In this document: piece by piece, positions 33,805 to 64,000 of the stretch
How the letters are laid out: every line of letters begins with the position of its first letter
Position numbering within the stretch: the first letter of the stretch is position 1
Assembly (NCBI GenBank): GCA_963727055.1
Contig: CAVSEN010000003.1
Span: 85,810-149,809, forward strand
Origin: an uncultured Chloroflexia bacterium
GTDB taxonomy: Bacteria; Chloroflexota; Limnocylindria; Limnocylindrales; CSP1-4
Length of the DNA: 64,000 nt
Reading direction: 5' to 3'
Program-made: the position numbers and the translations under genes
The notes under the pieces: generated by a model
Seen by the model: only the letters and a program-made list of their open reading frames with translations
Told to the model about the DNA's origin: nothing
Database searches by the model: none

Positions 33805-33818
33805 CGCCGGTCGGGGCC

Positions 33819-37018: not shown

Positions 37019-37027
37019 CGAGCCTCC

Positions 37028-37045
37028 TTGCGCAACCGATTGCAA
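37028..37045. promoter_or_regulatory. LacI-type operator candidate TTGCGCAACCGATTGCAA
   Basis: It lies in the 83-nt divergent region between iolD (start 37018) and paralog B (start 37101). Confidence 0.55.
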
Positions 37046-37100
37046 CGAAGGTATCATCGCCGCTCACTCCACGTCAACATCGGTCGGAGGGGTCGGCGTG

Positions 37101-49010: not shown

Positions 49011-49035
49011 GGGCGGCCGATGACAACTTCCTCGA

Positions 49036-49071
49036 TGATCGATCATTGCTCGTCTAGTCGTATAGACTGGT
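49036..49071. promoter_or_regulatory. AT-rich promoter elements: a perfect palindrome TGATCGATCA (49036-49045) and a dre-like box CTAGTCGTATAGACTGGT (49054-49071)
   Basis: Both were read from the sequence. They lie 60-95 nt upstream of the first gene of the 12-gene operon, which encodes a GntR/HutC regulator. The box shares 11/16 positions with the DasR/NagR dre consensus ACTGGTCTAGACCAGT. Confidence 0.4.
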
Positions 49072-49132
49072 TGCGCCCCGCGGCCCAGCGGGCGACCGGC
49101 TCACTGCCGGGCAGCGAGGAGGCCCTCCACGG

Positions 49133-50341
49133 ATGACGAGACAAGGTGACATCGGGACCGCGGTCATCGGCTCCGGCTTCATCGGCACGGTCCATGTCGA
49201 GGCCCTCCGCCGGATCGGCGTCCGGATCACCGGCCTGCTCGAGTCCTCGCCCGAACTTGGAGCCACGCGGGCGGCCGAGCTCAGCCTGGCCGGCTCATAC
49301 GGGTCGCTGGCCGAGCTGCTCGCCGACGATGCCGTCCAGGTCGTCCACGTCACCTCGCCCAACGCCCTGCACCACCCGCAGGTCAGGCAGATCCTGGCCG
49401 CGGGCAAGCATGTGGTGTGCGAGAAGCCGCTGGCCCTGACCTCGACCGAGTCGGCCGAGCTGGTCGGCCTGGCCGAGGCCAGCGGACTGGTCAACGCGGT
49501 CAACTTCAACCTGCGTTTCTACCCGCTCAACCAGCATCTCGCCGGCCTGGTCGCCGCCGGCGGTCTGGGCGACGTCCGCCTCGTCACCGGCCGCTACTTC
49601 CAGGACTGGCTGCTGTACGACACCGACTGGAACTGGCGCCTCGAGAAGGACACCGGCGGCACGCTCCGGGCGGTCGGCGACATCGGCTCGCACTGGCTCG
49701 ACCTGATGAGCTTCCTGACCGGCTGCCGGATCGAGTCGGTCGTGGCCGACCTGACCACGTTCATCCCGGTCCGCCAGCGGCCGGCCGGCCCGGTCCGCAC
49801 CTTCTCGACCGAACGGGCGACCGAGACGATCCCGGTGGCGATCGAGACCGAGGACGTCGCGACGATCATGATCCGGTTCGAGGGTGGTGCCCGGGGCAGC
49901 TGCGCGATCTCGCAGCTGAGCGCCGGCCGGAAGAACAGCCTGGTCTACGAGATCGATGGCGCCGCCGCCGCCGCGGCCTGGGACTCGGAGCAGCCCGAGC
50001 AGCTCTGGATCGGCCATCGGGACGAGCCCAATGAGCTGCTCCTGCGCAATCCGGCCCTGATGAACGCCGCCGGGCGGGCCGCAGCCCGCCTCCCGGGCGG
50101 CCACGTCGAGGGCTTCGCCGACACGTTCGCGGCCGCCTTCAGCGCGATCTATGCCGACGTCATTGCCGGCGGCCCGACGGCCACCCGCAGCTATGCCAAT
50201 TTCGCCGATGGCCACGAGGAGATGCTGGTCGGGGACGCGGTCCTCGAGAGCTCGCGCACCGGGCGCTGGGTCCCGGTCGCCCGGAGCGGCGCCCCGGGCG
50301 GGACCGATCGGCGATCGAACCAGGAGGTTTCGTCCCGATGA
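49133..50341 (+). CDS. Gfo/Idh/MocA-family NAD(P)-dependent oxidoreductase
   Basis: AVIGSGFIGTVH Rossmann, EKP motif. Confidence 0.9.
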   Translation: MTRQGDIGTAVIGSGFIGTVHVEALRRIGVRITGLLESSPELGATRAAELSLAGSYGSLAELLADDAVQVVHVTSPNALHHPQVRQILAAGKHVVCEKPLALTSTESAELVGLAEASGLVNAVNFNLRFYPLNQHLAGLVAAGGLGDVRLVTGRYFQDWLLYDTDWNWRLEKDTGGTLRAVGDIGSHWLDLMSFLTGCRIESVVADLTTFIPVRQRPAGPVRTFSTERATETIPVAIETEDVATIMIRFEGGARGSCAISQLSAGRKNSLVYEIDGAAAAAAWDSEQPEQLWIGHRDEPNELLLRNPALMNAAGRAAARLPGGHVEGFADTFAAAFSAIYADVIAGGPTATRSYANFADGHEEMLVGDAVLESSRTGRWVPVARSGAPGGTDRRSNQEVSSR

Positions 50342-51252
50342 AGCTGGGCTTCCTGACCGCTCCGTTTCCCGCCACGCCGCTGGCCGAGGTGGCCGACTGG
50401 GGCGCCGCGGCCGGCTTCGAGGTGCTCGAGATCGCCTGCTGGCCACGGACCGGGGGCAGCGCCCGGCGCTACGCCGGCACGAGCCACATCGACGTCGCCA
50501 ACCTCTCGGCGAGCCAGGCAACCGAGCTGGTCGACGAGCTGCGCGCCACGGGCCTGTCGATCTCCGGGCTGGGCTTCTATCCCAATCCGCTCCACCCCGA
50601 TCCGGCCCACCGAGCGGCGGTCATCGCCCACCTCAAGGACGTCATCACCGCGGCCGAGAAGATGGACGTCGCCCTGGTCAACACGTTCATGGGCGGCGAC
50701 GCGGCCCGCAACCCGGACGAGAACTGGGAGGAGGCGCTCCGGGTCTGGCCCGAGATCGTCGCCTTCGCCCGCGACCACGGCCGGAAGATCACCCTCGAGA
50801 ACTGCCCGATGCTCTTCTCCTACGACGAATGGCCGGGCGGCCACAACATCGCCACCAGCCCCCGGATGTGGCGCCGGATCCTGGAGCAGTGGGGCGACAC
50901 GATCGGGCTGAACTTCGACCCGAGCCACCTCGTCCTGCAGATGATCGACACCCGGCGCTTCCTCAAGGAGTTCGGGCCGCACGTCCTCCATTTCCAGGCC
51001 AAGGACCTGATGATCGACCGCGACGGGCTGTACGAGCGCGGGATCTTCTCGCTGGGGATGGGCTGGCAGATCCCGCGCATCCCGGGCCTGGGCGAGGTCG
51101 ACTGGCCGGCCGTCTTCTCCGAGCTGTACCGCGCCGGCTACGAAGGCGACTGCATCATCGAGCACGAAGACCGGCGGTTCGAAGGCAGCGACGAGAAGGT
51201 CAAGCAGGGCTTTCTCATCGCCCGGGACATCCTGCGTCCGTACTGCCGCTAG
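50338..51252 (+). CDS. Sugar phosphate isomerase/epimerase (xylose-isomerase-like TIM barrel)
   Basis: Family signature present. The ATG overlaps the upstream stop. Confidence 0.85.
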   Translation: MKLGFLTAPFPATPLAEVADWGAAAGFEVLEIACWPRTGGSARRYAGTSHIDVANLSASQATELVDELRATGLSISGLGFYPNPLHPDPAHRAAVIAHLKDVITAAEKMDVALVNTFMGGDAARNPDENWEEALRVWPEIVAFARDHGRKITLENCPMLFSYDEWPGGHNIATSPRMWRRILEQWGDTIGLNFDPSHLVLQMIDTRRFLKEFGPHVLHFQAKDLMIDRDGLYERGIFSLGMGWQIPRIPGLGEVDWPAVFSELYRAGYEGDCIIEHEDRRFEGSDEKVKQGFLIARDILRPYCR

Positions 51253-51274
51253 CGTCCCGAGACTGGAGCCCCTG

Positions 51275-52009
51275 ATGACCCTGTCCATCGACGACCTGAC
51301 CGAGCGCGACATCGCCAAGGCGATCGACCATTCGCTCCTGCGGCCCGAGCTCGACGACGCCTTCGTCGAGGCCGGCTGCCGGCTCGCGGCGAAGTACGAC
51401 GTCGCCTCGGTCTGCGTCCGGCCGGTCGACGTCCGCCGGGCCAGGGCGATCCTGGCCGGGACCGACGTCGCGGTCGGGACGACGATCGGCTTCCCCCACG
51501 GCAATCACCTGACCGAGGTCAAGGTCCTCGAGGCCCGGCGCGCGCTGGCCGACGGGGCGACCGAGCTCGACATGGTCCTCCAGGTCGCCGCCCTCAAGTC
51601 GGGCCGCGACGCCGACGTCGAGGCCGACATCCGGGCGGTCGTCGAGGTCGGCCATGCGGCCGGCGCCATCGTCAAGGTGATCTTCGAGAACGCCTACCTG
51701 ACCGACGACGAGAAGATCCGGGCCTGCCACCTGACCGAGGCCGCCGGTGGCGATTTCGTCAAGACGAGCACCGGCTTTGCGCCGAGTGGCGCGACCCACG
51801 ACGACCTGCGCCTGATGCGGGCCAACACCCGGCCAACGACCCGGGTCAAGGCGGCCGGCGGCGTCCGCAGCCTCGACGCGCTGCTGGCCGTGATGGACCT
51901 GGGCGTGACCCGGATCGGCGCCACGGCGACCGAGTCGATCATCGAGGAGTTCCGGGCGCGCAAGGCCGGCCGGAGCCTGGCGGCGACGGCGCCCGACGTG
52001 GGCTACTGA
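51275..52009 (+). CDS. deoC: Deoxyribose-phosphate aldolase
   Basis: FVKTSTGF Schiff-base lysine and the IDHSLL motif. Confidence 0.85.
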   Translation: MTLSIDDLTERDIAKAIDHSLLRPELDDAFVEAGCRLAAKYDVASVCVRPVDVRRARAILAGTDVAVGTTIGFPHGNHLTEVKVLEARRALADGATELDMVLQVAALKSGRDADVEADIRAVVEVGHAAGAIVKVIFENAYLTDDEKIRACHLTEAAGGDFVKTSTGFAPSGATHDDLRLMRANTRPTTRVKAAGGVRSLDALLAVMDLGVTRIGATATESIIEEFRARKAGRSLAATAPDVGY

Positions 52010-53067
52010 TGGCCGTCGTCGGAATCGGCATGCTCGGGTCGGGATTCATCGGCGAGTTCCATACCCTCGGCCTGCGCCATGTCCCGGAGGCCCGGGTCGT
52101 GGCCAACTTCGGGGCCGGGCGCGAGCGGCGCGAGGCGTTCGCCGCTCGCTTCGATAGCCGGCCGCTCGGCTCGATCGAGGCCGTCTGCCACGATCCGGCG
52201 GTCGACCTCGTCGTGGTCTCGCTGCCCAACCATCTTCACCGGGCCGCCGTCCTGGCCGCCGCCGCGGCGGGCAAGGCCGTCGCCTGCACCAAGCCGCTGG
52301 GCCGGACCGGCGCCGAGGCGGCCGCGATGCTGGCCGCGGTCGAGGCCGGCGGCCTGTTCCACGCCTATCTCGAGAACGTCGTGTTCAACGCCGAGATCGT
52401 CCGGATGCGGGAGCTGATCGAGGCCGGCGCGATCGGCCGGCTGACGACCTTCCGGGCCAGGGAAGGGCACAGCGGGCCGCACGCGGCCCACTTCTGGGAC
52501 GCCGACCTGGCCGGCGGCGGGGCGCTCCTCGACATGGCCGCCCACGGCATCGAGTGCGCCCGCTACCTGTTCGGCAAGGACGCCGCCGTCCGCGAGGTCT
52601 TCGCCTGGGCCGCCACGCTGGTCCACGGTGAGCGCACCACGGCCGAGGACAACGCCGTCCTCGTCGCCCGGCTCGAAGACGGCCGGGCGTTCACCTGCGA
52701 CGTGTCGTGGTCTTCGCGGGGCGGCCTCGAGGGCCGTTTCGAGGCCTACGGCGACGAGGGCCGGATGATCGAGGACCTGGGCACCACTTCGCTCCGGGCG
52801 TTCATCGGCCGCCCGGCGGGCTACATCGGCGAGAAGGCCGACGCCGACACGGGCTGGACCTACCCGGTGCCCGACGAGACCCACGTCCACGGCCACGACG
52901 CGATGATGGCCGACGTCGTCGGGTCGTTCATCGCCGGCCGCCCGCCGCGCGAGACCTTCCGGGATGGCCTGATCGTCAACACGATCCTCGACGCGGCCTA
53001 CCGCTCGACCCGGACCGGCTGCTGGGAAGTGGTCAGCCCGGCGCCGGTCCTGGCGGGGGTCGCCTGA
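52009..53067 (+). CDS. Gfo/Idh/MocA-family oxidoreductase (second copy)
   Basis: IGMLGSGFIGEFH Rossmann. The start overlaps the deoC stop. Confidence 0.9.
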   Translation: MAVVGIGMLGSGFIGEFHTLGLRHVPEARVVANFGAGRERREAFAARFDSRPLGSIEAVCHDPAVDLVVVSLPNHLHRAAVLAAAAAGKAVACTKPLGRTGAEAAAMLAAVEAGGLFHAYLENVVFNAEIVRMRELIEAGAIGRLTTFRAREGHSGPHAAHFWDADLAGGGALLDMAAHGIECARYLFGKDAAVREVFAWAATLVHGERTTAEDNAVLVARLEDGRAFTCDVSWSSRGGLEGRFEAYGDEGRMIEDLGTTSLRAFIGRPAGYIGEKADADTGWTYPVPDETHVHGHDAMMADVVGSFIAGRPPRETFRDGLIVNTILDAAYRSTRTGCWEVVSPAPVLAGVA

Positions 53068-53915
53068 TGGCCAGCGGCGGATCAGCGGCCGCGACCTGGC
53101 TGCGCGAGGCGGTCGCCCTGCTCGGGCGCCTGGGGGAGACCCAGGCCGAGGCGATCGAGACCGCCAGCCAGTGGTGCGCCGAGGCGATCGCCAACGACGG
53201 CCTCGTCCACCTGTTCGGGGCCGGCCACTCGCGGATCGGCGTCGAGGAGATGTTCCCGCGCTACGGGTCGTATCCCGGCTTCAACCCGATGGTCGAGCTG
53301 TCGGTGACCTACCACACCCAGGTCGTGGGTTCGAACGGCCAGCGCCAGGCGATGTTCATCGAGCGGATGCCCGGGCTGGCCGAAGTGATCCTGTCGAACT
53401 TCAGGTTCGGCGCCCATGACGCGATGATCGTCTTCTCGGCCAGCGGCCTGACCGCTCTGCCGGTCGAGATGGCCCGCGGCGCCCAGGCCCGCGGCCTGCG
53501 CGTGATCGCGGTCACCTCCGTTGCCCAATCCCTCTCCGGCCAGCCTGAGCCTGGGGCCGGAGCTCGCCTCCTGGAGGTGGCCGATCTCGTGATCGACATC
53601 TGCACCCCGCCCGCGGACGCGATGGTGACCATTGGCTCCCTAGATACCCCCATCGGGCCCGGGTCGACGATCGGCGCGGTCGCCATCGTCAACTCGATCA
53701 AGGTCCGGACCGCCGAGCTCCTCGTGGAGCTTGGGGCCATGACCCCCGTGATGACCCGCGCAAGCGTCGTCGGCACGGCCCGGTCCAAGGCCCTGTTTGA
53801 GTCGGCCTATCAAGAGCATGCGCGGCGGCTCGCCCGCGCGATTGACCTGCAAGGAGGTGGGAGACCGAGCGATGAGTCCGTTGCATCCAGCACACCCAGC
53901 ACGGGCCGGCCATAG
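53067..53915 (+). CDS. SIS (sugar isomerase) domain protein
   Basis: LFGAGHSRIG... SIS-like fold. The ATG overlaps the upstream stop (ATGA). Confidence 0.7.
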   Translation: MASGGSAAATWLREAVALLGRLGETQAEAIETASQWCAEAIANDGLVHLFGAGHSRIGVEEMFPRYGSYPGFNPMVELSVTYHTQVVGSNGQRQAMFIERMPGLAEVILSNFRFGAHDAMIVFSASGLTALPVEMARGAQARGLRVIAVTSVAQSLSGQPEPGAGARLLEVADLVIDICTPPADAMVTIGSLDTPIGPGSTIGAVAIVNSIKVRTAELLVELGAMTPVMTRASVVGTARSKALFESAYQEHARRLARAIDLQGGGRPSDESVASSTPSTGRP

Positions 53916-53957
53916 ACCACGCAATCGTCGGCCGGGCACAGGAGGATTCGAGATCTC

Positions 53958-55100
53958 ATGAACCATTCCGGTATCGCCCGCGCGCTCGCGACGCTGACCA
54001 CGGTCGTGGTCGTCGCGGCGGCGTGCACCAGCACTGCCACGACCCAGCCCGGGTCCAGTACCGCTCCGGGTACGTCCGGCGCACCGGCCGGCAAGACCTA
54101 CACGATCGGCTATTCCAACGGCTCGAGCGTCGGCAACGGCTTCCGCGAGGAGCAGGTCTGCACCGCCAAGGCGCAGGCCAAGGCCTCCGGGGCCGTCTCC
54201 ACGCTGACCGTCATCCATCGCAACACGGACGCCGCCGGGCAGCTTTCCGACATCCGTGACCTGATCGCCAAGAACGTCAACGCGATCGTCTTCAACCCGA
54301 ACGATCCGTCCGCCCTCAACCCGGCCCTGGCCGAGGCGAAGGCCGCCGGCATCGTGACCGTCTCGGTCGATGCCTACGTCACCGACACGAACACGTACAA
54401 CCTGTACAACAACCAGGTCAAGTACGCCGAGCTCGGGGCCAAGTGGCTGTTCGACCAGATGGGCGGCACCGGGACCGTCTACTACATGCGCGGGCTTGCC
54501 GGCAACTCGGCTGACTCCGACCGCGACACCGGCTTCAAGAACGTGCTCAAGAGCTATCCCAACATCAAGGTCGTCCCGAACGCCGATGGCGTCGCCACGG
54601 GCTGGGATCCGGCCACGGCCACCCAGCTGATCAATGCCTTCATTGCCAGCGGCCAGTACGACTCGATCCAGGGCATCTGGACCTCCGGCATGGACTCGAT
54701 GATCGTCGATGCGATCAAGTCCGCCAACAAGAAGTTCGTGCCGATCGTCGGCGCGGACCTCGGCGCGTTCGTCAAGCAGCTCCTCGACCCGGTCGGCTAT
54801 CCGGGCCTCAAGGGCGTCGCGGTCACCAACACCGCGGCCGTCGGCGGCGCAGGCATCGGCCTGGCGCTCAAGCTCCTCAACCACGAGACGGTCACCACTG
54901 ACCCCTCGGCAGCCCATCCGAACACCGTCCTGCTGGACCCGGTCGCGGTCGACAACACGACCGATGCCGGCAAGGCCCAGCTCAAGTCCTGGCAGTCGGT
55001 TCCGGGCCTCGACCCGACCTGGCCGCTCGGCATCCAGATCGCGGGATACACCACGTATACCCCCGACCAGGCCATCGCCTGCAAGGGCCCGGGCGAATAG
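53958..55100 (+). CDS. Sugar ABC transporter substrate-binding lipoprotein (RbsB/periplasmic-binding type I)
   Basis: The signal plus lipobox is MNHSGIARALATLTTVVVVAAACTST. The fold is PBP type I. Confidence 0.85.
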   Translation: MNHSGIARALATLTTVVVVAAACTSTATTQPGSSTAPGTSGAPAGKTYTIGYSNGSSVGNGFREEQVCTAKAQAKASGAVSTLTVIHRNTDAAGQLSDIRDLIAKNVNAIVFNPNDPSALNPALAEAKAAGIVTVSVDAYVTDTNTYNLYNNQVKYAELGAKWLFDQMGGTGTVYYMRGLAGNSADSDRDTGFKNVLKSYPNIKVVPNADGVATGWDPATATQLINAFIASGQYDSIQGIWTSGMDSMIVDAIKSANKKFVPIVGADLGAFVKQLLDPVGYPGLKGVAVTNTAAVGGAGIGLALKLLNHETVTTDPSAAHPNTVLLDPVAVDNTTDAGKAQLKSWQSVPGLDPTWPLGIQIAGYTTYTPDQAIACKGPGE

Positions 55101-55181
55101 CCCCCACCTGAGCTGACACCCAGGCGAGGGGCGCCGGGCCCAACCGGCACCCCTCGCCCAACCCCACCCATAATCGGACCG

Positions 55182-56750
55182 ATGAGCCTGATCACGACCG
55201 ACCTGTTGCTCGAGGCGACGGGCATCAAGAAGACGTACGGCGCCGTCGTGGCGCTCAGGAACGCCTCCCTGGCTGTGCGCCCGGGCGAGGTCCACGCCCT
55301 GATGGGCGCCAACGGCGCCGGCAAGAGCACCCTCGTCAAGATCCTGACCGGCGCGGTCATGCCCGACGCCGGCACGATCACCGTTCGCGGCCGGCCGCGA
55401 ACCGCCCACTCGCCGGCCGAGGCCCGCCGGGGCGGCCTGGTCTCCGTCTACCAGGAGCCGGCTCTCATCCCCGACCTCGACATCCGCTCGAACCTGCGCC
55501 TGACCCGGACGCCGGTTGAGCCGTTCCGCCACTGGCTGAAGGAGCTCGGCCTCGAGGGACTCGACCTGTCGAGCCTGGCGCGGCGCGTGCCGCTTGCCTC
55601 GCTCCGGATCATCGACCTCGCCCGGGCGCTGGCGATCGAGCCCGACGTGCTGATGCTCGACGAGATGACCGCGGCGTTGCCCGCCAACCTGACCGAGCGT
55701 GTCCTCGACGTGATCGGCCGCCAGCGGGGTGGTGAGCGTTGCGTCATCTTCATCTCCCACCGCCTGATCGAGATCGCTGCGGTGTGCGACCGGGCGACCG
55801 TCCTGCGAGAGGGCGAGACGGTCGGCGTCGTCGACGTCAGCGCCGGGTCCGAGGAGCGGATCGTCGAGCTGATGCTCGGCCAGGTCGTCGCGGACCTGCC
55901 CGCCGTTGCCACCCGGGCCGCGGCCCAGGCCCGAATCGCCGGAGTCCAGCCCCGCCTCGCGGCCCGTGGCCTGGGCGCCGGCCCGAAGCTGGCCGACGTG
56001 TCGTTCGACCTCTACCCGGGCGAGGTCCTGGGGGTCGTCGCCCTCGAGGGCCAGGGCCAGGACGAGCTGTTCGACGTCCTGGCCGGGTCCGAGCGCCCGT
56101 CGGCCGGCCAGCTCCTCGTGGACGGCACGCCGACCACCTTCCACCACCCCGCCGACGCGATCCGGGCCGGCCTGGTGTACGTCGCCGCCGATCGCGCCGA
56201 GGCGCTCCTGATGCAGCGCTCGGTCCGCGAGAACATCGCCCTGCCCGGCTCGACCCGGCTCCGGCGGTGGGGCCTGATCGACCTGGCCAAGGAGCGGCGG
56301 ACGGTCGACGGCGCCGTCGAGAAGCTGCAGATCGATGCCCGGGCCGGCGGCGAGGTGCGCCGCCTGTCGGGCGGCAACCAGCAGAAGGTGACGATCGCCC
56401 GCTGGGTCGCCGGCGGGGTCCACACGATGCTCTGCTTCGATCCCACCCGGGGGATCGACATCCGCACGAAGAACCAGATCTATGTCCTGCTCCGTGATCT
56501 GGCCGAGGCCGGCGCGGCCGTCCTGCTGTACACCTCCGAGCTGAAGGAGGTCCAGCTCGTGTGTGATCGGGCGATCGTGATCTTCGGCGGCCGGGTGGTG
56601 GCCGAGATCCAGGCCGCCGACGCCGACGAGCCGGCCCTGCTGCGCGCCGCCTACAACCTCCGAGCCGACGCCGTGATTCCCGAGCAGGCGGCCGCCGACG
56701 CCAATGCCGACGCCATTGCCGAGTCCGCCGGCCAGGAGGCCGCCCGATGA
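55182..56750 (+). CDS. Sugar ABC transporter ATP-binding protein with two NBDs (RbsA/MglA type)
   Basis: Two Walker A / signature sets (GANGAGKST; LSGGNQQKV). Confidence 0.9.
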   Translation: MSLITTDLLLEATGIKKTYGAVVALRNASLAVRPGEVHALMGANGAGKSTLVKILTGAVMPDAGTITVRGRPRTAHSPAEARRGGLVSVYQEPALIPDLDIRSNLRLTRTPVEPFRHWLKELGLEGLDLSSLARRVPLASLRIIDLARALAIEPDVLMLDEMTAALPANLTERVLDVIGRQRGGERCVIFISHRLIEIAAVCDRATVLREGETVGVVDVSAGSEERIVELMLGQVVADLPAVATRAAAQARIAGVQPRLAARGLGAGPKLADVSFDLYPGEVLGVVALEGQGQDELFDVLAGSERPSAGQLLVDGTPTTFHHPADAIRAGLVYVAADRAEALLMQRSVRENIALPGSTRLRRWGLIDLAKERRTVDGAVEKLQIDARAGGEVRRLSGGNQQKVTIARWVAGGVHTMLCFDPTRGIDIRTKNQIYVLLRDLAEAGAAVLLYTSELKEVQLVCDRAIVIFGGRVVAEIQAADADEPALLRAAYNLRADAVIPEQAAADANADAIAESAGQEAAR

Positions 56751-57748
56751 CAGCCGCGGCAGTCCCGCCCCAGGCTCGCAGCCGAACCCTGGTGCTGTTC
56801 GGGTCGTCGGCCCGGCGCAACGGCTGGGTGCTCGGCCTGGTGAGCTTCCTCGTCCTCCTCCTGGTCTTCACCAAGCTGATCCAGCCGAGCTACGGCGTGA
56901 CCGGTGTGCAGGGCCTCGGGATCTCCGTCCTGCCCCTCGCCCTGGCCGCCGTCGCCCAGGCCGTCGTCGTCATCTCGGGCGGGATCGACCTGTCGATCGG
57001 GGCGATGATGGCCCTCACCAACGTCGTCTCGGCCAGCCTGATGAAGGGCCAGTCGGAGCAGTTCGACGTCCTCGTCGTGATCGCGGTCCTCGGCCTCGGC
57101 CTCCTCCTCGGAGCGATCAATGGCGGGGTCGTCGTGATCACCCGCGTCCCGGACATCGTCGTGACCCTGGCCATGTCGTTCGTGTGGGCCGGCTTCGCCC
57201 TGCTCGTCCTGCCCACCCCCGGTGGCAGCTCGGCCCAGTGGCTGATGGACCTCGCCAGCGGGTCATTCCTGAACGAGTGGATCCCCAAGGCCGCGGTCGT
57301 CCTGATCGTCGTGGTGGCCGTCATCTGGATCCCGGTCCGCCGCTCGCGGCTCGGCCTCTCGATCTACGCCACCGGCAGCCATCCGCTGGCCGCGTTCCGG
57401 AGCGGCGTCTCGATCGGCCGGACGAAGGTCCTGGCCTACGCCCTGATGGGCCTGTTCGCGGCGCTGGCCGGCCTGTCGCTGACCGCCAGCACCGGCATCG
57501 GGACGCCCGTCCCCGGCCCGTACACCCTCCTGAGCGTGGCCGCGGTCGTCCTCGGCGGGGTCAGCCTGGCCGGCGGCAAGGGCGGTGTCTTCGGCTCGAT
57601 CGTGGCGGTCGTGATCCTGCAGCTGATCCGGACCGACATGACCTTCCTCAACGTGAACACGAACCTGGCCACCGTCGTCCAGGGGCTCATCCTGATCGGA
57701 GTCGTGATGATCGGCAGCCTGGTCCAGATCCGGCGGGCACGGGCATGA
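56747..57748 (+). CDS. ABC transporter permease (RbsC-like)
   Basis: Membrane protein. Its start overlaps the upstream stop. Confidence 0.9.
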   Translation: MTAAAVPPQARSRTLVLFGSSARRNGWVLGLVSFLVLLLVFTKLIQPSYGVTGVQGLGISVLPLALAAVAQAVVVISGGIDLSIGAMMALTNVVSASLMKGQSEQFDVLVVIAVLGLGLLLGAINGGVVVITRVPDIVVTLAMSFVWAGFALLVLPTPGGSSAQWLMDLASGSFLNEWIPKAAVVLIVVVAVIWIPVRRSRLGLSIYATGSHPLAAFRSGVSIGRTKVLAYALMGLFAALAGLSLTASTGIGTPVPGPYTLLSVAAVVLGGVSLAGGKGGVFGSIVAVVILQLIRTDMTFLNVNTNLATVVQGLILIGVVMIGSLVQIRRARA

Positions 57749-58743
57749 GCGGCGCCGCCGGCGTGTCGGGCACGCGCCGCTCGCAGCTGGGCACGGCAGC
57801 GATCGGGCGCCTGTTCCGCGACCGGCCGATCCTGCCCCTGCTCGTCCTGCTGGCCGTGCTCGTCGGCCTGAGCGAGCTTGCCCGGCCGGGCATCGTCAGC
57901 CCCGAATGGATCGGGGTGATCATCCGGGCGGCCGTGCCCCTGGCCATCCTCGCCGGCTGCCAGGTCCTGACGATGCTGACCGGTGGGATCGACCTGTCGG
58001 TGGGGGCCGTTGCGTCGATGTCCGGCTTCGTCGTGGCCACCCTGGTGATGGGCCCCGGGACGCCGGCCGGGATCGTCATCGCCCTCCTCGTGGCGGCGCT
58101 GGCCGGCCTGGTCACCGGCGTCGGCGTCGGCGTCTTCCGGGTCCATCCCCTGATCATGACCCTGGGCATGAGCCTGGTCGTCCTCGGCCTGGCCAACGTC
58201 TGGCAGCTGGTCATGGTCAAGACCAACTCCGGGGTGCCGCCCGAGCTGCGCTGGATCGGCTCCGAGGAGGTCTTCGGGATCCTGCCGGTCAGCCTCCTGC
58301 TGTTCGTCCCGCTGACGGTGGCGATTCTGGTCGGCCTCCGGCGGAGCGGCTTCGGCCGGCTGCTCTACGCGATCGGCGACAACCCGGTGGCCGCCCGCCT
58401 GTCGGGCGCCCGGTCGTGGCAGGTCCTCGTCGTGCTGTACGTCATCTCGGCCCTGATGGCGGCGATCGCCGGCTTCCTGGTCACCGGTCAGACGAACGTG
58501 GCCAGCGTCTCCCTCGTCGACTCGTCGGTCCTGCCCTCGGTCGCCGCGGCGGTGATCGGCGGGACGTCGATCATGGGCGGCCGGGGCGGCTTCGGCGGAG
58601 CGATCGTGGGGGCCCTGATCCTGACCGTCATCAGCTCGCTCCTCTCGTCGCTCGGCTATCCCGAGGCCGTCCGCCAGATCCTGTTCGGGGCGATCATCGT
58701 GGCCGTTGCCGCCGCCTACACCCGGGTCACGGCCGAGTCGTGA
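57745..58743 (+). CDS. ABC transporter permease (RbsC-like, second)
   Basis: The MSGAAG start overlaps the upstream stop (ATGA). Confidence 0.9.
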   Translation: MSGAAGVSGTRRSQLGTAAIGRLFRDRPILPLLVLLAVLVGLSELARPGIVSPEWIGVIIRAAVPLAILAGCQVLTMLTGGIDLSVGAVASMSGFVVATLVMGPGTPAGIVIALLVAALAGLVTGVGVGVFRVHPLIMTLGMSLVVLGLANVWQLVMVKTNSGVPPELRWIGSEEVFGILPVSLLLFVPLTVAILVGLRRSGFGRLLYAIGDNPVAARLSGARSWQVLVVLYVISALMAAIAGFLVTGQTNVASVSLVDSSVLPSVAAAVIGGTSIMGGRGGFGGAIVGALILTVISSLLSSLGYPEAVRQILFGAIIVAVAAAYTRVTAES

Positions 58744-58767
58744 GCGACTCCGGCCCGCGGACCTGAC

Positions 58768-59703
58768 GTGACGACCCAGGCGGCTGCCAGTCGACACCTG
58801 GGTCTCGACCTCGGCGGCACGAACCTGAAGTGGGCGGTGGTCGCCCGCGACGGCGAGGCGTGGGCCAGCCTGGCGACCGGCCAGGTCGCCACCCGGATCG
58901 GGCCGGATCCGGCGACTGTGCCGGGCGCCATCGTGACCCAGCTGGCCGAGGTCGCGGTCGCGGCCTGCGCCGAGTGGGGGCCGGTCGAGAGCATCGGGAT
59001 CGGCGTACCCGGGCTCTACGACCCGGTCGCCGGCACGACCCGCTTCCTGGTCAACATTCCCGGACCATGGGCCGGCCATCCGGTCGCCGGTCCGGTGGGT
59101 GCCGCCGCCCGGCTGCCCGCCTTCCTGATCAACGACGCCCGGGCCTTCGGCCTGGCCGAGCTGCGCCTGGGGGCCGGCCGGGGCGCGACGTCGATGGTCG
59201 GGCTGACCCTCGGCACCGGGATCGGCGGCGTGCTGGTGATCGATGGCCGGGTCCATGCCGGTCACGACGGCACCGCCGGCGAGATCGGCCACCAGACGAT
59301 CGATCCTGACGGCCCGTGGTGCAACTGCGGCAATCGGGGCTGCCTCGAGGCATTCGCCCGGGCCGACCAGATCGCGGCGGCCTGCGGCACGGCAAGCGCC
59401 GAGGATGCCGTCCGGGCGGTCGAGGCCGGCGACGAGCGTGCCCGGGCCGGCCTGGCCGAGATCGGCCGCTACCTCGGGATCGGGATCGCCAACATGATCA
59501 CCGTCGTGGCACCCGACCGGGTGGTCGTCGGCGGCGGCGTGGCGGCGGCCGGGGAGGTCCTCTTCGCGCCGATCCGGGCCGAGATCGCCCGCCGGGTGCG
59601 GACGACCTCGATCGAGGACGTGGCCCTGGTGCGGGCCGAACTGGGGACGTGGGCCGGCGCGATCGGCGCCGCGGTCCACGGTGCAGAGCAGGCCGGCCGA
59701 TGA
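58768..59703 (+). CDS. ROK-family sugar kinase
   Basis: ROK signature with a Zn Cys motif ([21 protein letters not shown]). No N-terminal HTH, so it is a kinase rather than a repressor. Confidence 0.85.
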
Positions 59704-60437
59704 TGCCCCGGGCCTCGTGGACGCCCCACTACCGCTCGATCGAGCTTGCCCTGCGCGCTCGCCTGGCAACGATGCGGCCGGGCGACCGGCTGCCGTCGGA
59801 CAGTGACCTGTGCCGCGAATTCGGGGTCAGCCGGATGACGGCCCGCAACGCGATGCAGCGCCTGGCCGAGGACGGCCTCGTGCGGCGGATTCCCGGCCGC
59901 GGCTCATTCGTCGTCGAGCCACCGGCCCATCGCTACGCCGACCGGCTGATGGCCTTCACCCAGGAGATGCGCCGCCAGGGCCGAACGCCGAGCTCCAGGC
60001 TCCTGAACCGGGAGGTCCGCCCGGCAACCGAGGCCGAGGCCAAGGCGCTCGAGCTGCAGCCCGATGAGGCGGTCGTCGTCGTCCGCCGGGTGCGCTTCGT
60101 CGACGACCGGGCGATGGCCGCCGAGACGGCGGTCCTCGTCCGGCGGGTCCAGGCGATCGTGATGGCCGCCGACCTCGAGTCGGGCTCCCTGCACGAGGCG
60201 CTCGCCCGGGCCGACCTCCACCTCCGACGCGGGCAGGGCACGATCTCCGCCGAGCCGGCCACGGCCGAGGACGCCGAGCTGCTGGGGGTAGCGGTGGGGG
60301 ACGCGCTGCTCGTCGAGCGGCGGGTCATCGTCGCCGCCGACGGGCGACCGGTCGAGGCAACCGAATCGCGCTATCCCGGCGACCGCTACGCCCTCGACGT
60401 CCGGTTCGAGGTGGACGAGGGGTGGGCGACCCGATGA
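59700..60437 (+). CDS. GntR-family transcriptional regulator, HutC/UTRA subfamily (NagR/DasR-like)
   Basis: N-terminal [34 protein letters not shown] plus a UTRA domain. It is encoded inside the operon it probably controls. Confidence 0.85.
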
Positions 60438-61549
60438 CCGCGGTGGGCGGCCGGCTCGTCCTCGACGACACGATCATCGCCGGCCGGCTCGTGCTGGAGG
60501 ATGGCCGGATCGCGGCGATCGAGCCCGATGAGCGGGAGGCGGACGGGCCGTACCTGGCGCCCGGGTTCGTCGACCTCCACGTTCACGGCTGGGGCGGCCA
60601 CGACGCGATGGGCTCCCGGGCGGATCTCGACGGGATGGCCCGGGCGCTCCTGCGCCGCGGCGTGACCGGATTCCTGCCGACCGCCGTGACCGCCGGCCTG
60701 GACACCCTGGCGGCCTTCGCCGAGCGGGTCCGCGGCTGGCTGCCCGACGCCCCGCCGGACGGGTCCGACCCGCTCGGGTTCAACCTCGAGGGCCCGTTCC
60801 TCTCGCCCAGCCGGAAGGGCGCCCAGAACCCGGCGTTCATCGCCGTCCCGGCCGCCGTTGGCCACGACGTCCTCCGTCCGCTCCTGCCCGGCCTGAAGGT
60901 GATGACCGTCGCGCCCGAGGTCGAGGGCGGCCTCGACCTGATCCGCTGGCTCGTCGCCAACCAGGTCGTCGTGTCCCTCGGCCACTCCGCCGCCGGCCTC
61001 GAGCAGGCCCGGGCCGGCTACGCCGCCGGCGCGAGCTCGACGACCCACCTGTTCAATGCGATGTCGGGGATCGACCACCACGCACCGGGCCTGGCGGTCG
61101 CCGCCCTGGCCGACGACGCGGTCACGGTCGAGCTGATCGCCGATGGCCACCACGTCCATCCGGCCCTGTGGCCGATCATCGAACGCACGAAGCCGGCCGG
61201 CCGGCTGATCCTGGTCAGCGACGCGCTGCCCCAGGCCGGCCTGGGCGACGGGCGGATGGTGATGGGCGGTCTCGAGGTCGAGGTCCGCGCCGGCAGCGCC
61301 CGGCTGGCGGGCAGCGACACCCTGGCCGGCAGCGTCATCGCCCTCGACAGCGCCGTGCGCAACCTCGTGGCGGCCGGCCTGGCGCTGCCCGCGGCGGTCG
61401 CTGCCGCCAGCCGCAACCCGCTTGGCCTGCTCGGAGTCACGGATCGGGGCCGGCTGGCCGTCGGCCAGCGGGCCGACCTGGTCGAGCTCGACGATGCCCT
61501 GGAGGTGGTCCGGGTGGCGCGCGCCGGGGCCTGGATCAGCGCCGGCTGA
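60422..61549 (+). CDS. nagA: N-acetylglucosamine-6-phosphate deacetylase
   Basis: Amidohydrolase motifs [11 protein letters not shown] and HLFNAM. Confidence 0.85.
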
Positions 61550-61555
61550 CGAGGC

Positions 61556-62461
61556 TCAGTAACCGACCGACGGCAGCCAGGCGCCGCGCGGCTGCTGGTA
61601 GATCCCGACGCTCATCAGGTTCGTGACGAAGAAGACCCGCAGGCCGCGGGCGAGGCCCCAGCGGAACAGATCGGCATTGTCGAGTGGCACCAGGATGCCC
61701 GGCGGCGGGATCGCGCCGGCCGTGCAGATCAGGGCCTCGAGGTCGGCATTCGCCTCGGCGACGGAATGGCTCCAGTAGCAGATCCCGCAGGTGTAGCCGG
61801 TGATCCGGCCGAGGTGCTCGACGACCCGCGCCGTGCCGGCGGCGATCGCCTCGCGCAGCTCGCCCGACCGGTCGTGGCCGTGGACCCGGACGCAGAGCCG
61901 GTTGCACTCGCCCTCGTCGTCGGGGTAGGCCCGCCGGACGCGGTAGCCGGGCAGCGCCTCCCCAAGCGGATCGCCATGCAGCGCGGCGAGCGTGGCCCGC
62001 ACGTCGAAGCCGAGCTTGGCATACAGGCTGAGCGAGCGGTTGTGGTAGGCAATCTGGACCAGGCGCACGCCCGGGGCGCCCCGCTCGGCGACGCGGTCGA
62101 GCATCGCGCCGACCAGCACCCGGCCGACACCGGCGTCCTGGACCGCCGGGTCGACGCTGACCGGTCCGATCGCCGAGATCGACGAGCGCTCGTCGAGGAA
62201 GCTGCTGCCGGCGATCCGGCCATCGCGCTCGGCGACGACTCCGTACACGCCGGGGTGGTTGATCAGGCCGCGGATCGGGCCGGCCGCGGCCTCGACCGTC
62301 GGGAAGTCGGGCGGGAAGCCGTGCCGCCGGGCGACCGCGGCGAACGCCTCGAAGCAGATCCGTCCGCACTCCGCCCAGTCGGGGTCGGCGGCCCGGCGCA
62401 CGTTGATCGGCCGGCCGTCGGGCGGGGCCAGCAGGAGCGGCGCTGGGGCCTGGACAGCCAT
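61556..62461 (-). CDS. GNAT-family N-acetyltransferase (two-domain)
   Basis: Acetyl-CoA-binding motif QDAGVGRVLVGAM. Confidence 0.7.
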   Translation of the reverse strand: MAVQAPAPLLLAPPDGRPINVRRAADPDWAECGRICFEAFAAVARRHGFPPDFPTVEAAAGPIRGLINHPGVYGVVAERDGRIAGSSFLDERSSISAIGPVSVDPAVQDAGVGRVLVGAMLDRVAERGAPGVRLVQIAYHNRSLSLYAKLGFDVRATLAALHGDPLGEALPGYRVRRAYPDDEGECNRLCVRVHGHDRSGELREAIAAGTARVVEHLGRITGYTCGICYWSHSVAEANADLEALICTAGAIPPPGILVPLDNADLFRWGLARGLRVFFVTNLMSVGIYQQPRGAWLPSVGY

Positions 62462-62609
62462 CTGGATGCTCCGCGGAAGGTCGTCGAACCAGCGGTCCGG
62501 ACGGTCCGCCGATCATCCGATCGTAGCCACGCGCGGAGCGCCCCCAACAGGGCCAAACGGCCCGCTATCGTTCGTCCAGCAGACCGAGCCAGGAGGAGAA
62601 GGGACCGCG

Positions 62610-63398
62610 ATGAAGCCGCCCACCGTGTTCCTCGGCGAGATGACCACGCTCGAGGTCGAGGCCTTCCTCGAACACCACCTGACGGTGATCGTGCCGGTCG
62701 GCTCGACCGAGCAGCACGGCCCGCATGCCCCGCTCCTGACCGACGTCCTGATTCCCCAGGAGGTGGCCCGGCGCGTCGCGCCGCGCGTGGGCGGCGTGGT
62801 GGCGCCGCCGGTCAACTACGCCCTGTCCTACCCCCACGTGGGATTCACCGGCGTGGTCCAAGTCCGGATTCCGACGTTCATGGCGCTGATCGAGGACCTG
62901 TGCGCGTCGCTGGCCGCGGTGGGCTTCCGGCGGATCGTCTTCCTCAATGGCCACTACGACAACACGTACGCGATCGCCTATGCCTGCGCCAACGCCGCGG
63001 ACCGCCTGCCGGCCGGCGTCCACGCCTTCCCGATCAACTACTGGGACGGCATGACGCCGGCCGAGGCGGCCGAGTTCTTCGACCCGGCGACCGGCCTGCA
63101 CGCCAACCGGGGCGAGACCTCGGCCGTCCTGGCGATCGCCCCCGACCTGGTCGACATGGACCGGGCGAACGTCGAGTTCCCGCCCTTCCCCGAGGTCACC
63201 GGCGGCGCGGCGGTCCACACCGCGTTCTTCTTCTCGGCGCCCGGCTCCGTCCACCGGGCAACCCGGTCGGGCACCTGGGGCGATGCCCGGAACGCGAGCG
63301 CCGAGTTCGGCGAGCGCTACCTGGCGGTCGTGGCCGAGTCGACGGTCCGCCTCCTCGAGGACATCGACCGGACGTTCGCGGCGATGCCCGGGCGCTGA
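62610..63398 (+). CDS. Creatininase-family amidohydrolase
   Basis: VPVGSTEQHGPHAPLLTD is the creatinine amidohydrolase family signature. The start is MKPPTV, preceded by an AGGAGGAG RBS. Confidence 0.85.
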   Translation: MKPPTVFLGEMTTLEVEAFLEHHLTVIVPVGSTEQHGPHAPLLTDVLIPQEVARRVAPRVGGVVAPPVNYALSYPHVGFTGVVQVRIPTFMALIEDLCASLAAVGFRRIVFLNGHYDNTYAIAYACANAADRLPAGVHAFPINYWDGMTPAEAAEFFDPATGLHANRGETSAVLAIAPDLVDMDRANVEFPPFPEVTGGAAVHTAFFFSAPGSVHRATRSGTWGDARNASAEFGERYLAVVAESTVRLLEDIDRTFAAMPGR

Positions 63399-63467
63399 GC
63401 CCCCGATCGGGGGCGGAGGACTAGAATCGGACCCGCGGTCTGGGGGCCGCTCCCTGAGGACGCGCAC

Positions 63468-64000
63468 GATGGACCTGGCCGCCACGCTCTCCGCGCACGG
63501 GATCCTGCCCGTGGTCACCGTGGCGACGGCCGACCGGGCCGTCCCCCTGGCGGAGGCCCTCGTTGCCGGCGGCCTGCCGCTGGTCGAGATCACGTTCCGG
63601 TCCGAGGCGGCCGTCGGGGCGATCCGGGCGATCCGGCAGGGCGTGCCCGGGATGCTGGTCGGTGCCGGGACCGTGCTGACCGTGGCCCAGGCGGATGCGG
63701 CGATCGAGGCCGGCGCCGCGTTCCTGGTCAGCCCGGGGCTCGACCTCGCGATCGTCGACCGGGCGCTTGCCCGGGGCGTCGCCGTCCTGCCCGGCATTGC
63801 CACCCCGACCGAGCTCCAGGCGGCGCTCGGCCGGGACCTGCGCCTGGTCAAGGTCTTCCCGGCGGCCGCGCTCGGTGGCCCGGCCTACCTGCGCGCCCTG
63901 GAGGCGCCCTACCCGATGGTCCGCTTCGTGCCGACCGGCGGGGTCAGCCCGGCGAACCTGGCCGACTACCTCGAGCTGGGCTCGGTGGCCGCGGTCGGCG
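63468..64000 (+). CDS. eda: KDPG/KHG aldolase (partial; the 3' end lies outside the window)
   Basis: GLPLVEITFRS...VGAGTVLT...FLVSPG...VLPGIATPTE...LVKVFPA...RFVPTGGV is the canonical Eda pattern. Confidence 0.8.

Follow-up and report, generated by a model that had tools for sequence, protein, structure and literature searches.

Gene content and operon structure

The stretch of DNA analysed here (64 000 nucleotides from an uncultured Chloroflexia bacterium, assembly GCA_963727055.1, contig CAVSEN010000003.1, positions 85 810–149 809; referred to below as the window) carries on its + strand, between positions 49133 and 61549, a run of twelve intact and uninterrupted open reading frames (ORFs). 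The set is a real operon for taking up and breaking down a sugar under the control of a repressor, and many uncultured soil Chloroflexota carry it. At seven of the 11 junctions neighbouring genes overlap by 1 or 4 nt, and the other four leave gaps of 22, 42, 81 and 24 nt; an earlier reading made from the letters alone (the sequence-only reading) had described one single-strand operon with overlapping stop and start codons and an internal HutC-type regulator, and this was borne out, the GntR and UTRA domain gene being gene 11 of the 12. The next gene, a GNAT acetyltransferase (61556–62461) with a homologue in eight related loci as well, is convergent, and the operon is therefore taken to end with NagA. 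The G+C content of the window is 68–75%.

All families were confirmed with Pfam and NCBIfam, and the observation is regarded as confirmed because DeoC and NagA exceed curated equivalog cutoffs. The first gene (49133–50341, 402 amino acids) encodes a Gfo/Idh/MocA oxidoreductase of the ring-hydroxyl sugar or cyclitol dehydrogenase type (Gfo1, assigned with Pfam) and is followed by a xylose-isomerase-like TIM barrel (TIM; 50338–51252, 304 amino acids, PF01261), the deoxyribose-phosphate aldolase (DERA) DeoC (51275–52009, 244 amino acids, TIGR00126) and a second Gfo/Idh/MocA oxidoreductase (Gfo2; 52009–53067, 352 amino acids, Pfam). The fifth gene (53067–53915, PF13580 and NF002805) encodes a UPF0309/SIS_2 phosphosugar enzyme of the NagS–MurQ clade (SIS); its start was placed at 53067, which gives a protein of 282 amino acids identical to database protein P0001. 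An ABC transporter is encoded by the next four genes and consists of a CUT2-type (RbsB/YtfQ-like) substrate-binding lipoprotein (SBP; 53958–55100, 380 amino acids, PF13407, Peripla_BP_4), an ATPase with two ABC domains (55182–56750, 522 amino acids, PF00005 in two stretches) and two BPD_transp_2 permeases (56747–57748, 333 amino acids, PF02653; and 57745–58743, 332 amino acids, NCBIfam ribose/monosaccharide permease matches). The operon is completed by a ROK sugar kinase without a DNA-binding domain (58768–59703, 311 amino acids, PF00480), a NagR/DasR-like GntR/HutC repressor (59700–60437, 245 amino acids, GntR plus UTRA) and the N-acetylglucosamine-6-phosphate deacetylase NagA (60434–61549, 371 amino acids from the ATG at 60434, TIGR00221). 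The earlier family calls stood, with a correction to the second permease, the frame of which is 57745–58743; the ORF at 57906–58766 gave no Pfam match.

Conservation in related loci

Homologues of SIS were scored (6949 in all; the best 120 were all at least 75% identical), and the closest of them are named in general terms only, for example 'SIS domain-containing protein'. Relatives in species-representative genomes come nearly all from metagenome-assembled genomes (MAGs) of soil and peat Chloroflexota (Limnocylindrales, 'Chloroflexia', palsa bins) at 65–86% identity, and a minority come from Actinomycetes, Acidimicrobiia or Dormibacterota. Since the nearest relatives are Chloroflexota, the Streptomyces frame (DasR, dre) is one of analogy and not of membership.

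The twelve window proteins were compared by tblastn with 81 related loci. The order Gfo1–TIM–(DeoC)–(Gfo2)–SIS–SBP–ATPase–permease–permease–ROK–GntR–NagA is kept in about 60 Chloroflexota MAG loci at 46–89% amino-acid identity, with median identities over the twelve proteins of 62–81% (highest for DeoC at 81% and the ATPase at 77%, then TIM at 75%). Gfo1 is present in 68 of the 81 loci (median identity 68%), TIM in 69 (75%) and NagA in 42, many of the 81 being truncated before the NagA position; Gfo2 was found in just 35. SIS is the most constant gene across loci and serves as the signature of the system. What lies between TIM and SIS varies: this slot holds DeoC, DeoC plus Gfo2 or a second TIM paralogue, or is empty, and in one subclade (L059, L060, L063, L066, L068 and L076) DeoC is missing or swapped for a second TIM barrel. 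Because of this variation DeoC and Gfo2 are regarded as accessory, and the core of the system, as judged from these alignments, is Gfo1–TIM–SIS–ABC–ROK–GntR–NagA. The proposal that DeoC and the second dehydrogenase are pathway steps therefore holds for their families, which were confirmed, and not for a place in the core.

Further genes recur around this core. An extra Gfo/Idh/MocA gene, termed X4, lies upstream in 48 loci, and next to it in subsets of loci are an SDR, a PF12831 FAD oxidoreductase and a PTE-family lactonase. A NagB-like Glucosamine_iso gene stands beside X4 in ten loci; its best NCBIfam matches are glucosamine-6-phosphate (GlcN-6P) deaminase and galactosamine-6-phosphate isomerase (E = 1e-37 to 1e-39). 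A divergent NagC/Mlc-like ROK regulator of 456 amino acids is present in 30 loci, an FSA/TalC aldolase in ten, and PTE lactonases lie beside UPF0309 genes in 11 Chloroflexota loci and in the Acidimicrobiia locus L081. Clustering of flanking ORFs was noisy, because the GC-rich DNA yields shadow ORFs and the long-read MAGs contain frameshifts, and became useful only after targeted tblastn. The 64-kb window itself holds no X4, NagB-like gene, PTE lactonase, FAD oxidoreductase or SDR, and with no Glucosamine_iso homologue in these 64 kb it does not encode the canonical NagK–NagA–NagB pathway for N-acetylglucosamine (GlcNAc).

Two variations outside the window were noted. A URO-D/MtaA-CmuA-like gene, absent from the window, lies between GntR and NagA in 14 loci (for example L001, 17415–18539) and does not co-vary with DeoC. 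In L060, L063, L066 and L068 two tandem TIM paralogues (∼8050–9950) occupy the position of DeoC plus Gfo2; together with X4 and Gfo1 this makes two Gfo and two TIM genes in that subclade, which is the composition of the levoglucosan (Lgd) system.

Operator and promoter region

A putative HutC-type operator, GTCTAGTCGTATAGACTGG, with two TCTAG/TAGAC cores, lies at 49052–49070 (+ strand), 62 nt before the start codon of Gfo1. Its footprint comes from an alignment of 63 orthologous loci over the 250 nt that precede Gfo1, in which the element occurs in two spacing classes, (A/G)TCTAG-YY-GT(A/C)TAGAC-TGG or TCTAGA-NN-GTCTAGAC(A). The expression T[CA]TAG-N2-4-[GCT]T[ACT]T[AG]GA[CT] matches 39 of the 63 upstream regions, ending 26–87 nt before the start codon, and looser variants are present in most of the remaining 24. 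Over 2.79 Mb and both strands the expression has 47 matches, all of them at promoters that belong to this gene system: the 39 upstream of Gfo1, seven reverse-strand readings of the same palindromic site and one upstream of X4 in the actinomycete locus L078. Within the window GTMTAGAC occurs once, inside the 49052–49070 box. Judged on this pattern, the conservation of the operator and its restriction to promoters lie far beyond chance. In many loci a TTGACC-N17-TACCAT promoter precedes the element, a position that fits a repressor site at the transcription start; a simple scan of the operon promoter region in the window gave no σ70 consensus promoter. As the repressor gene lies within the operon, the repressor is presumed to be autoregulated.

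The box had been proposed to resemble the dre site of NagR and DasR. Set in the dre register the window operator reads GTCG-TATAGA-CTGG against GTGG-TCTAGA-CCAC for the NagR site, so that the two have in common the centre and G-7/T-6/G-4 of one half-site, and G-5 is absent. It thus shares the TCTAGA/TATAGA centre of 5'-GTGGTCTAGACCAC-3', with C or T at the positions that correspond to G-5, and it is a double TCTAG...TAGAC element of 15–16 bp, whereas dre is a single 14–16-bp site. What stood of the proposal is a conserved HutC-type site with a GT-N-TA-N-AC/TCTAGA core; the flanks differ and the GG at -5/-4 of a strict dre site is not there. The dre-like reading nevertheless appears right on the kind of site and on a phospho-amino-sugar effector.

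Five nucleotides upstream of the operator lies an AT-rich perfect palindrome of 12 bp, ATGATCGATCAT (49035–49046), which contains TGATCGATCA at 49036–45 and may overlap a -10-like GATCAT. Perfect palindromes of 12 bp number 83 in the window, compared with about 44 after mononucleotide shuffling; most of the 83 are GC-only (for example GGCCGGCCGGCC), and palindromes alone are accordingly weak evidence in this genome. ATGATCGATCAT is the sole 12-bp palindrome in the 64 kb with at least eight A/T, and ATCGAT-type elements recur patchily, in a few close relatives only. The palindrome pointed out in the sequence-only reading is therefore present and compositionally unusual but poorly conserved among the nearest relatives. 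An element reminiscent of it, GATCATCCGATCG, is found in the intergenic region 62462–62609.

A second conserved inverted repeat, ACTTTTGCAC-TTGACA-GTGCAAAGT, was seen at position 5881 of L001 and in 27 related loci, mostly 65–250 nt upstream of Gfo1. Its place is between the operon and the divergent gene for the NagC-like ROK regulator, and it is probably the operator of that regulator; neither of the two occurs in the window. No terminator was found after NagA on the + strand by a simple scan, and Rfam gave no RNA family, the lone weak match to Ysr276 being attributable to chance.

The GntR/HutC regulator

The regulator combines PF00392 (E = 3.7e-17) and PF07702 (UTRA, E = 6e-35). Its best solved relatives are NagR (2wv0, 4u0v) and DasR (4zs8, 9i0v) at E ∼4e-29, the next match following at 1e-17. 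The residue roles described for NagR (PMC4333415) were mapped onto the alignment. The phosphate binders T90, R133, R135 and S165 and the sugar binders F89, E145 and Y228 of NagR are identical in the window regulator, as are R211 and E222; the changes in the pocket are I166 to L, Y167 to H and, at a contact on the acetyl side, I209 to E. These matches uphold the NagR/DasR-like assignment, the pocket residues being mostly kept.

Among the base readers Arg48 and Gly69 are kept and Arg38 is replaced by Ser, so that the DNA-reading residues of NagR/DasR are not all present. In NagR Arg38 reads G-5 of the operator (PMC4333415), and with this arginine lost the operator flanks differ from dre accordingly. 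NagR of B. subtilis and DasR of Streptomyces have the same domain architecture as the window regulator, and NagA belongs to the regulated operon there as well. The window regulator differs from them in being encoded inside a 12-gene Chloroflexota operon without NagB.

The SIS protein and NagS

The 'SIS-domain protein' of the sequence-only reading is indeed a SIS protein and, more specifically, a UPF0309 enzyme of the NagS–MurQ clade (NF002805 at 254.7 bits against a cutoff of 135; PF13580), which alters its mechanistic reading. The nearest solved structure is NagS (SCO4393, 9eol, E = 2.5e-29). NagS, described in 2025 (PLoS Biol, PMC12680351), dehydrates GlcNAc 6-phosphate (GlcNAc-6P) and N-acetylmannosamine 6-phosphate (ManNAc-6P) to 6P-chromogen I; NagA then takes the acetyl group off this product, the enamine/imine so formed being toxic in Streptomyces, and the NagS–NagA pair was presented as a toxic signalling side-route confined to the Streptomycetaceae (PMC12680351). 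NagS is related to MurQ, with which it has C2-deprotonation/C3-elimination chemistry in common, and binds 6-phosphogluconate tightly; H53, R64, E94 and D179 are essential, and S91 and N228 important (PMC12680351).

SIS is 32% identical to NagS and conserves H53, R64, E94 and D179 as well as the phosphate serines S119 and S121. Throughout the Chloroflexota SIS clade S91 is replaced by M and N228 by S. Homologues of NagS at 26–36% identity from outside the Streptomycetaceae, including A0LSD9 of Acidothermus, did not dehydrate GlcNAc-6P, and orthologues were defined by at least 58.7% identity and a divergent dmdR1 neighbour (PMC12680351). SIS, at 32% identity and with Gfo2 and SBP as neighbours and no dmdR1, falls outside this definition; on its identity, S91M, N228S and the inactive homologues at a similar distance it was rejected as a NagS orthologue. 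For the same reasons its substrate or outcome probably differs from that of NagS. By analogy with NagS we infer a first step in which the C2 proton of an open-chain sugar phosphate would be abstracted, with a different substrate or outcome. The NagS–NagA route of Streptomyces thus involves the same UPF0309/SIS_2 family with the same four residues, and the SIS gene is linked to NagA here. Unlike nagS of Streptomyces, it is embedded in an operon with a transporter, a kinase, dehydrogenases and an aldolase, a setting that suggests productive catabolism and not a toxic side-reaction in signalling. Literature searches on the gene combination, on UPF0309/COG4821, on Lgd with GlcNAc and on chromogen I with DERA returned nothing besides the NagS paper (PMC12680351).

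Other enzymes and transporter

NagA exceeds the TIGR00221 equivalog cutoff (253.8 bits against 225.65). DeoC does so for TIGR00126 (218.3 bits against 117.3), aligns to characterised DERAs at E = 4e-54 and, in an alignment to solved DERAs, keeps the KTSTGF motif with the Schiff-base lysine and the K-GG-R motif; by these features it is predicted to be a bona fide, canonical deoxyribose-phosphate aldolase.

Among the NCBIfam models Gfo1 matches levoglucosan dehydrogenase best, with 151.6 bits where the cutoff is 650, and Gfo2 reaches 94.6 on the same model. In the PDB Gfo1 matches 4h3v, 3v5n, LgdA (6a3f, E = 3e-39) and a scyllo-inositol/L-glucose dehydrogenase (5ya8), and in its sequence it resembles dehydrogenases that oxidise ring hydroxyls. 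Gfo2 is closest to 6jw6 and 6nor (E ∼1e-31), deposited merely as dehydrogenases, which we take to be the aminoglycoside sugar 3''-dehydrogenases KanD2 and GenD2, followed by LgdA (6a3f). A profile of TIM matched 2zds (SCO6571, an uncharacterised Streptomyces protein) at E = 1e-16 and a 2-hydroxy-3-keto-glucal hydratase (8ro4) at 3e-9, with tagatose 3-epimerases/ketose 3-epimerases and IolE further down; identity with YcjR is 25% over just 113 amino acids. TIM is thus placed, from its profile, as a member of an uncharacterised xylose-isomerase-like subfamily. The nearest solved relatives of the ROK kinase are glucokinases/hexokinase (3vov, 2qm1 and 3vgk, E = 1e-34 to 1e-39), NanK and NagK following at 1e-24 to 1e-28. 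The SBP has a lipobox-like N-terminus (...VVVAAAC), and its best NCBIfam matches, YtfQ and RbsB, are far under cutoff; the best PDB matches reach only E = 1e-21 to 1e-17, and the PDB search gave no informative liganded relative.

The Lgd pathway (LgdA/B1/B2/C) and YcjQRS of E. coli share with the operon the combination of a Gfo/Idh/MocA dehydrogenase, one or more TIM barrels and a second dehydrogenase; LgdA is among the best characterised relatives of Gfo1, and the 2-hydroxy-3-keto-glucal hydratase is the best characterised relative of TIM. The differences are the low score on the LgdA model, identities to YcjR and YcjS of 25–33% over partial lengths, and the link to NagA, ROK and SIS, which was not seen in those systems. 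The Lgd pathway itself was set aside because both Gfo proteins stay under the LgdA equivalog cutoff and TIM is distant from the glucal hydratase, and equivalence to YcjQRS because direct comparison with the E. coli proteins gave family-level similarity only. Also rejected were myo-inositol (iol) catabolism (iolG 89–117 bits against 355 and iolE 33 against 290 for the Gfo and TIM proteins) and the routes for N-acetylgalactosamine (GalNAc; Aga) and sialic acid (Nan), as no PfkB kinase, tagatose aldolase, NanE or NanA is present.

Downstream genes and UPF0309 contexts in other phyla

Just downstream of the operon lie two genes that the sequence-only reading had missed. A creatininase-family metal amidohydrolase/hydrolase of 262 amino acids (62610–63398, + strand; TIGR04448 E = 3e-39 and IolN-like E = 1e-26, both under cutoff) is a candidate member of the system, a homologue lying downstream of NagA in 14 other loci. 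A 2-keto-3-deoxy-6-phosphogluconate (KDPG)/KHG aldolase, Eda (63457–64000, + strand, continuing past the window end), is a candidate terminal pathway enzyme; it starts 1.9 kb downstream of the operon, and the 181 residues encoded within the window score 203.5 bits on TIGR01182 (cutoff 156). Eda homologues adjoin the system in L009, L026, L077, L078 and L081.

UPF0309 genes on annotated replicons have similar company in other phyla. In the Bacteroidota Spirosoma, Persicobacter and Haliscomenobacter the arrangement is (GntR)–SDR–(ROK)–SIS–(TIM)–FAD oxidoreductase–PTE–Gfo, Haliscomenobacter being without GntR and ROK, and an Acidimicrobiia MAG has SDR–Eda–DeoC ... SIS–ROK regulator–ABC–Gfo1–TIM–FAD oxidoreductase–PTE. 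A Listeria cluster consists of a phosphotransferase system (PTS), PTE, creatininase, DagF-like KDPG aldolase and SIS (UPF0309), with the aldolase abutting the UPF0309 gene, and the Alphaproteobacteria Nitratireductor and Microvirga carry a NagB-like–SIS–NagA-like trio. For the PTEs of Chloroflexota, Bacteroidota and Listeria alike, the best-matching family is 'phospho-furanose lactonase' (E = 1e-45 to 1e-50, below the equivalog cutoff). The recurrent partners of UPF0309 are thus a kinase or PTS, an amidohydrolase, one or more dehydrogenases, a phospholactonase and a KDPG aldolase. A further context was seen in L087, an Agrobacterium vitis plasmid, where 1191–11154 encodes GntR, a BMP-type ABC transporter, an isochorismatase-family hydrolase, a sugar kinase, a nucleoside phosphorylase, SIS and an aldehyde dehydrogenase; this nucleoside-like context suggests that the UPF0309 family is used on more than hexosamines.

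Proposed pathway

The reading that we favour, tentatively for the chain as a whole, is that the genes form an inducible operon for the uptake and catabolism of an N-acetylated amino sugar or a close derivative, which would be converted to KDPG without NagB. The HutC repressor (gene 11) would sit on the TCTAG/TAGAC operator and be released by a 6-phosphorylated amino-sugar intermediate. The CUT2 ABC system would import a monosaccharide-sized N-acetyl amino sugar and the ROK kinase would form the 6-phosphate; up to this point the scheme draws on family membership and conserved residues. SIS would then abstract the C2 proton of the open-chain sugar phosphate and eliminate the C3 substituent in a NagS/MurQ-type reaction, and NagA would deacetylate the resulting enamide, the order of the two steps being that of NagS and NagA in Streptomyces, with whose biochemistry the analogy is drawn. 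Gene association is the basis for the remainder: a Gfo/Idh/MocA dehydrogenase would oxidise C1 of the furanose-form product, in place of the toxic dead end of Streptomyces, and the ring would be opened by a phospho-furanose-type lactonase in the relatives and spontaneously or by another enzyme in the window, giving a 2-keto-3-deoxy-6-phospho acid (KDPG or an analogue) that Eda would split into pyruvate and glyceraldehyde-3-phosphate. Gfo1 and TIM, with Gfo2 or the X4 paralogue, probably make up an oxidise–rearrange–reduce module by analogy with LgdABC and YcjQRS, and this module would, instead or in addition, funnel an unusual epimer or an anhydro form into the pathway. The variable slot of DeoC suggests an add-on function, such as the use of deoxyribose from DNA.

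Although unproven, the overall route would resemble an Entner–Doudoroff pathway for amino sugars that is independent of NagB. Common ground with the Entner–Doudoroff pathway and the D-glucosaminate (dga) pathway of Salmonella is the KDPG aldolase gene that adjoins the system in the window and five other loci, the lactonases and C1-type dehydrogenase candidates carried by relatives of the window locus, and the DagF-like KDPG aldolase of the Listeria UPF0309 cluster. The system differs from both in having no Edd, Zwf or DgaE homologue, and the dehydrating/deaminating step would fall to the cofactor-less SIS enzyme, for which the reaction has been shown with GlcNAc-6P and ManNAc-6P only.

The earlier suggestion of a non-canonical amino-sugar pathway is sustained by a bona fide NagA, the NagR-like pocket and the lack of NagB in the window, and loses DeoC and Gfo2 as accessory genes. 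Beyond NagA, the links to amino sugars are the NagB-like gene in ten loci, the NagC-like ROK regulator in 30 and the alphaproteobacterial trio. Several points weigh on the other side. NagS homologues at 26–36% identity are inactive on GlcNAc-6P, and SIS, at 32%, has S91 and N228 changed. In the window there is no lactonase, X4, FAD oxidoreductase or SDR, and the convergent GNAT gene separates Eda and the creatininase-family gene from the operon, no operator having been found before them. The scheme requires one dehydrogenase and the system has two to five, plus the TIM barrel, while DeoC, a canonical DERA, has no role in it. The Bacteroidota and actinobacterial versions lack NagA, and the common substrate of the family may therefore not be N-acetylated. 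Two extensions of the scheme were dropped: the supply of 2-deoxyribose-5-phosphate to DeoC by decarboxylation of KDPG or its imine, since there is no thiamine diphosphate (ThDP) enzyme and the URO-D-like gene does not co-vary, and the 2-deoxygenation of GlcN-6P via a 4-keto intermediate, for lack of an enzyme.

In a wider version of the proposal, which we consider possible and rather unlikely, the NagS–NagA pair would be the vestige of a widespread and complete catabolic 'amino-sugar Entner–Doudoroff' route bypassing NagB. The UPF0309 SIS enzyme would dehydrate or eliminate at C2/C3 of an amino-sugar 6-phosphate, an amidohydrolase would remove the acyl group, and a dehydrogenase and a phospho-furanose lactonase would then yield KDPG for aldolase cleavage; the route would be present in Chloroflexota, with variant forms in Acidimicrobiia, Bacteroidota, Listeria and Alphaproteobacteria.

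By its sequence features the locus is a strongly conserved, HutC-controlled operon, apparently linked to amino sugars, with uncharacterised enzymology, and a NagB-independent pathway around the NagS family, which is credible but unproven, would be new. Much of the organic nitrogen in soil is in amino sugars that come from chitin and peptidoglycan, and Chloroflexota of this type are abundant, yet uncultured, in soil. If the favoured reading is true, a 12-gene NagB-free operon would add a new piece to soil carbon and nitrogen cycling, an amino-sugar route used by some of the most abundant uncultured soil bacteria; the large UPF0309 family would gain a physiological role, and the NagS toxicity route of Streptomyces would be recast as a truncated catabolic pathway. 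The operator/regulator pair offers a ready regulon marker for MAG annotation.

Alternative explanations

One other explanation, on balance unlikely, is non-oxidative: Gfo1, TIM and Gfo2 or X4 would turn an unusual N-acetylhexosamine, either a C2/C4 epimer (GalNAc, N-acetylmannosamine, N-acetylallosamine) or 1,6-anhydro-GlcNAc, into GlcNAc via a 3-keto intermediate. ROK would phosphorylate and NagA deacetylate the product, and with SIS as a deaminase/isomerase or 2-epimerase and NagB elsewhere the end product would be fructose-6-phosphate, Eda, the creatininase and DeoC having separate jobs. A Gfo protein, a TIM barrel and a second dehydrogenase are what YcjQRS, annotated for guloside-to-glucoside epimerisation, and LgdA/B1/B2/C consist of; the best characterised relatives of Gfo1 act on ring hydroxyls, the subclade with two tandem TIM barrels and two Gfo genes has the Lgd composition, a NagB-like gene stands next to X4 in ten loci, and the regulator pocket, as aligned, would fit GlcNAc-6P or GlcN-6P. 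YcjR/YcjS and the LgdA model, however, show similarity at the family level only, and such a conversion leaves both the recurrent association of UPF0309 with a lactonase, a KDPG aldolase and a creatininase across phyla and the constancy of a NagS/MurQ-type enzyme unexplained. The kinship of NagS with MurQ and their common C2-deprotonation/C3-elimination chemistry (PMC12680351) also bear on a quite improbable scavenging of muramic acid, in which N-acetylmuramic acid (MurNAc) or 1,6-anhydro-MurNAc from peptidoglycan necromass would be the substrate, the redox/TIM enzymes would open the anhydro ring, ROK would be a MurNAc kinase and the UPF0309 protein a MurQ-like etherase giving D-lactate and GlcNAc-6P for NagA. 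MurQ and AnmK are both missing from the cluster, and there are NagA and NagB-like partners. Muramic acid is an abundant soil amino sugar. Oxidation at C3 of the LgdA type is impossible on MurNAc because C3 is etherified, and a route by way of C4 is purely conjectural; the cluster has no gene for handling lactate and no regulator of the MurR type, and the lactonase, the KDPG aldolase partners and DeoC are left without an explanation.

That the core does not act on an amino sugar at all is improbable. A neutral sugar, cyclitol or deoxy sugar would be processed through the CUT2 transporter, IolG/IolE-like enzymes, the kinase, SIS and aldolases, with NagA and the HutC regulator as Chloroflexota additions and DeoC serving deoxyribose from DNA. 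The actinobacterial and Bacteroidota versions, which keep SIS, ROK, Gfo and TIM without NagA (the actinobacterial loci also the ABC transporter), speak for this, as do the canonical DeoC, the pentoses, hexoses and inositols that are the usual ligands of CUT2 binding proteins, and the L077 system, which adjoins iolC and an IolM-like dehydrogenase. Against it, the window has a separate and complete iol cluster (iolB, C, D and aldolase) at 27–37 kb, and the Gfo and TIM proteins are far under the iolG/iolE cutoffs; NagA, the NagB-like genes, the NagC-like regulator and the NagR-like pocket point to amino sugars, and UPF0309 is paired with NagA-like and NagB-like genes in Alphaproteobacteria too. 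We regard as very unlikely a patchwork of unrelated necromass-scavenging functions that are merely co-transcribed, namely GlcNAc (ROK, NagA), deoxyribose (DeoC) and a separate redox module. The TIM–SIS slot, which may be empty or hold a second TIM, DeoC, or DeoC plus Gfo2, would suit it, as would the insertion of other genes in subsets of loci, such as the URO-D-like gene in 14; but the Gfo1–TIM–SIS–ABC–ROK–GntR–NagA core is ordered, translationally coupled and of high identity across many species, and a single operator appears to control it.

Other genes of the window

A canonical myo-inositol cluster occupies 27442–37057 on the - strand, 12 kb upstream of the operon. It comprises iolD (35132–37057, TIGR04377, 889 bits), iolC as the C-terminal part of the ORF 32830–34854, iolB within 31907–33310, a LacD-family aldolase (30909–31955), a TIM barrel (29159–29998) and a LacI regulator (27442–28575). 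On the immediate upstream side of the operon lie an AraC-family regulator (45726–46673, - strand) and a 731-amino-acid NADH:flavin oxidoreductase of the old yellow enzyme (OYE) type fused with a pyridine-nucleotide-disulphide reductase domain (46815–49010, + strand); the AraC and OYE-type families did not turn up among the genes that recur next to the related loci. The DNA between the inositol genes and the operon also encodes a cytochrome P450 (41565–42782, + strand) and a protein with a GyrI-like small-molecule-binding domain (42799–43563, - strand), and ORFs at 37378–40579 (+ strand) encode a CehA/McbA-family metallohydrolase region and a further xylose-isomerase-like TIM barrel (38957–40579, PF01261, E = 3e-51).

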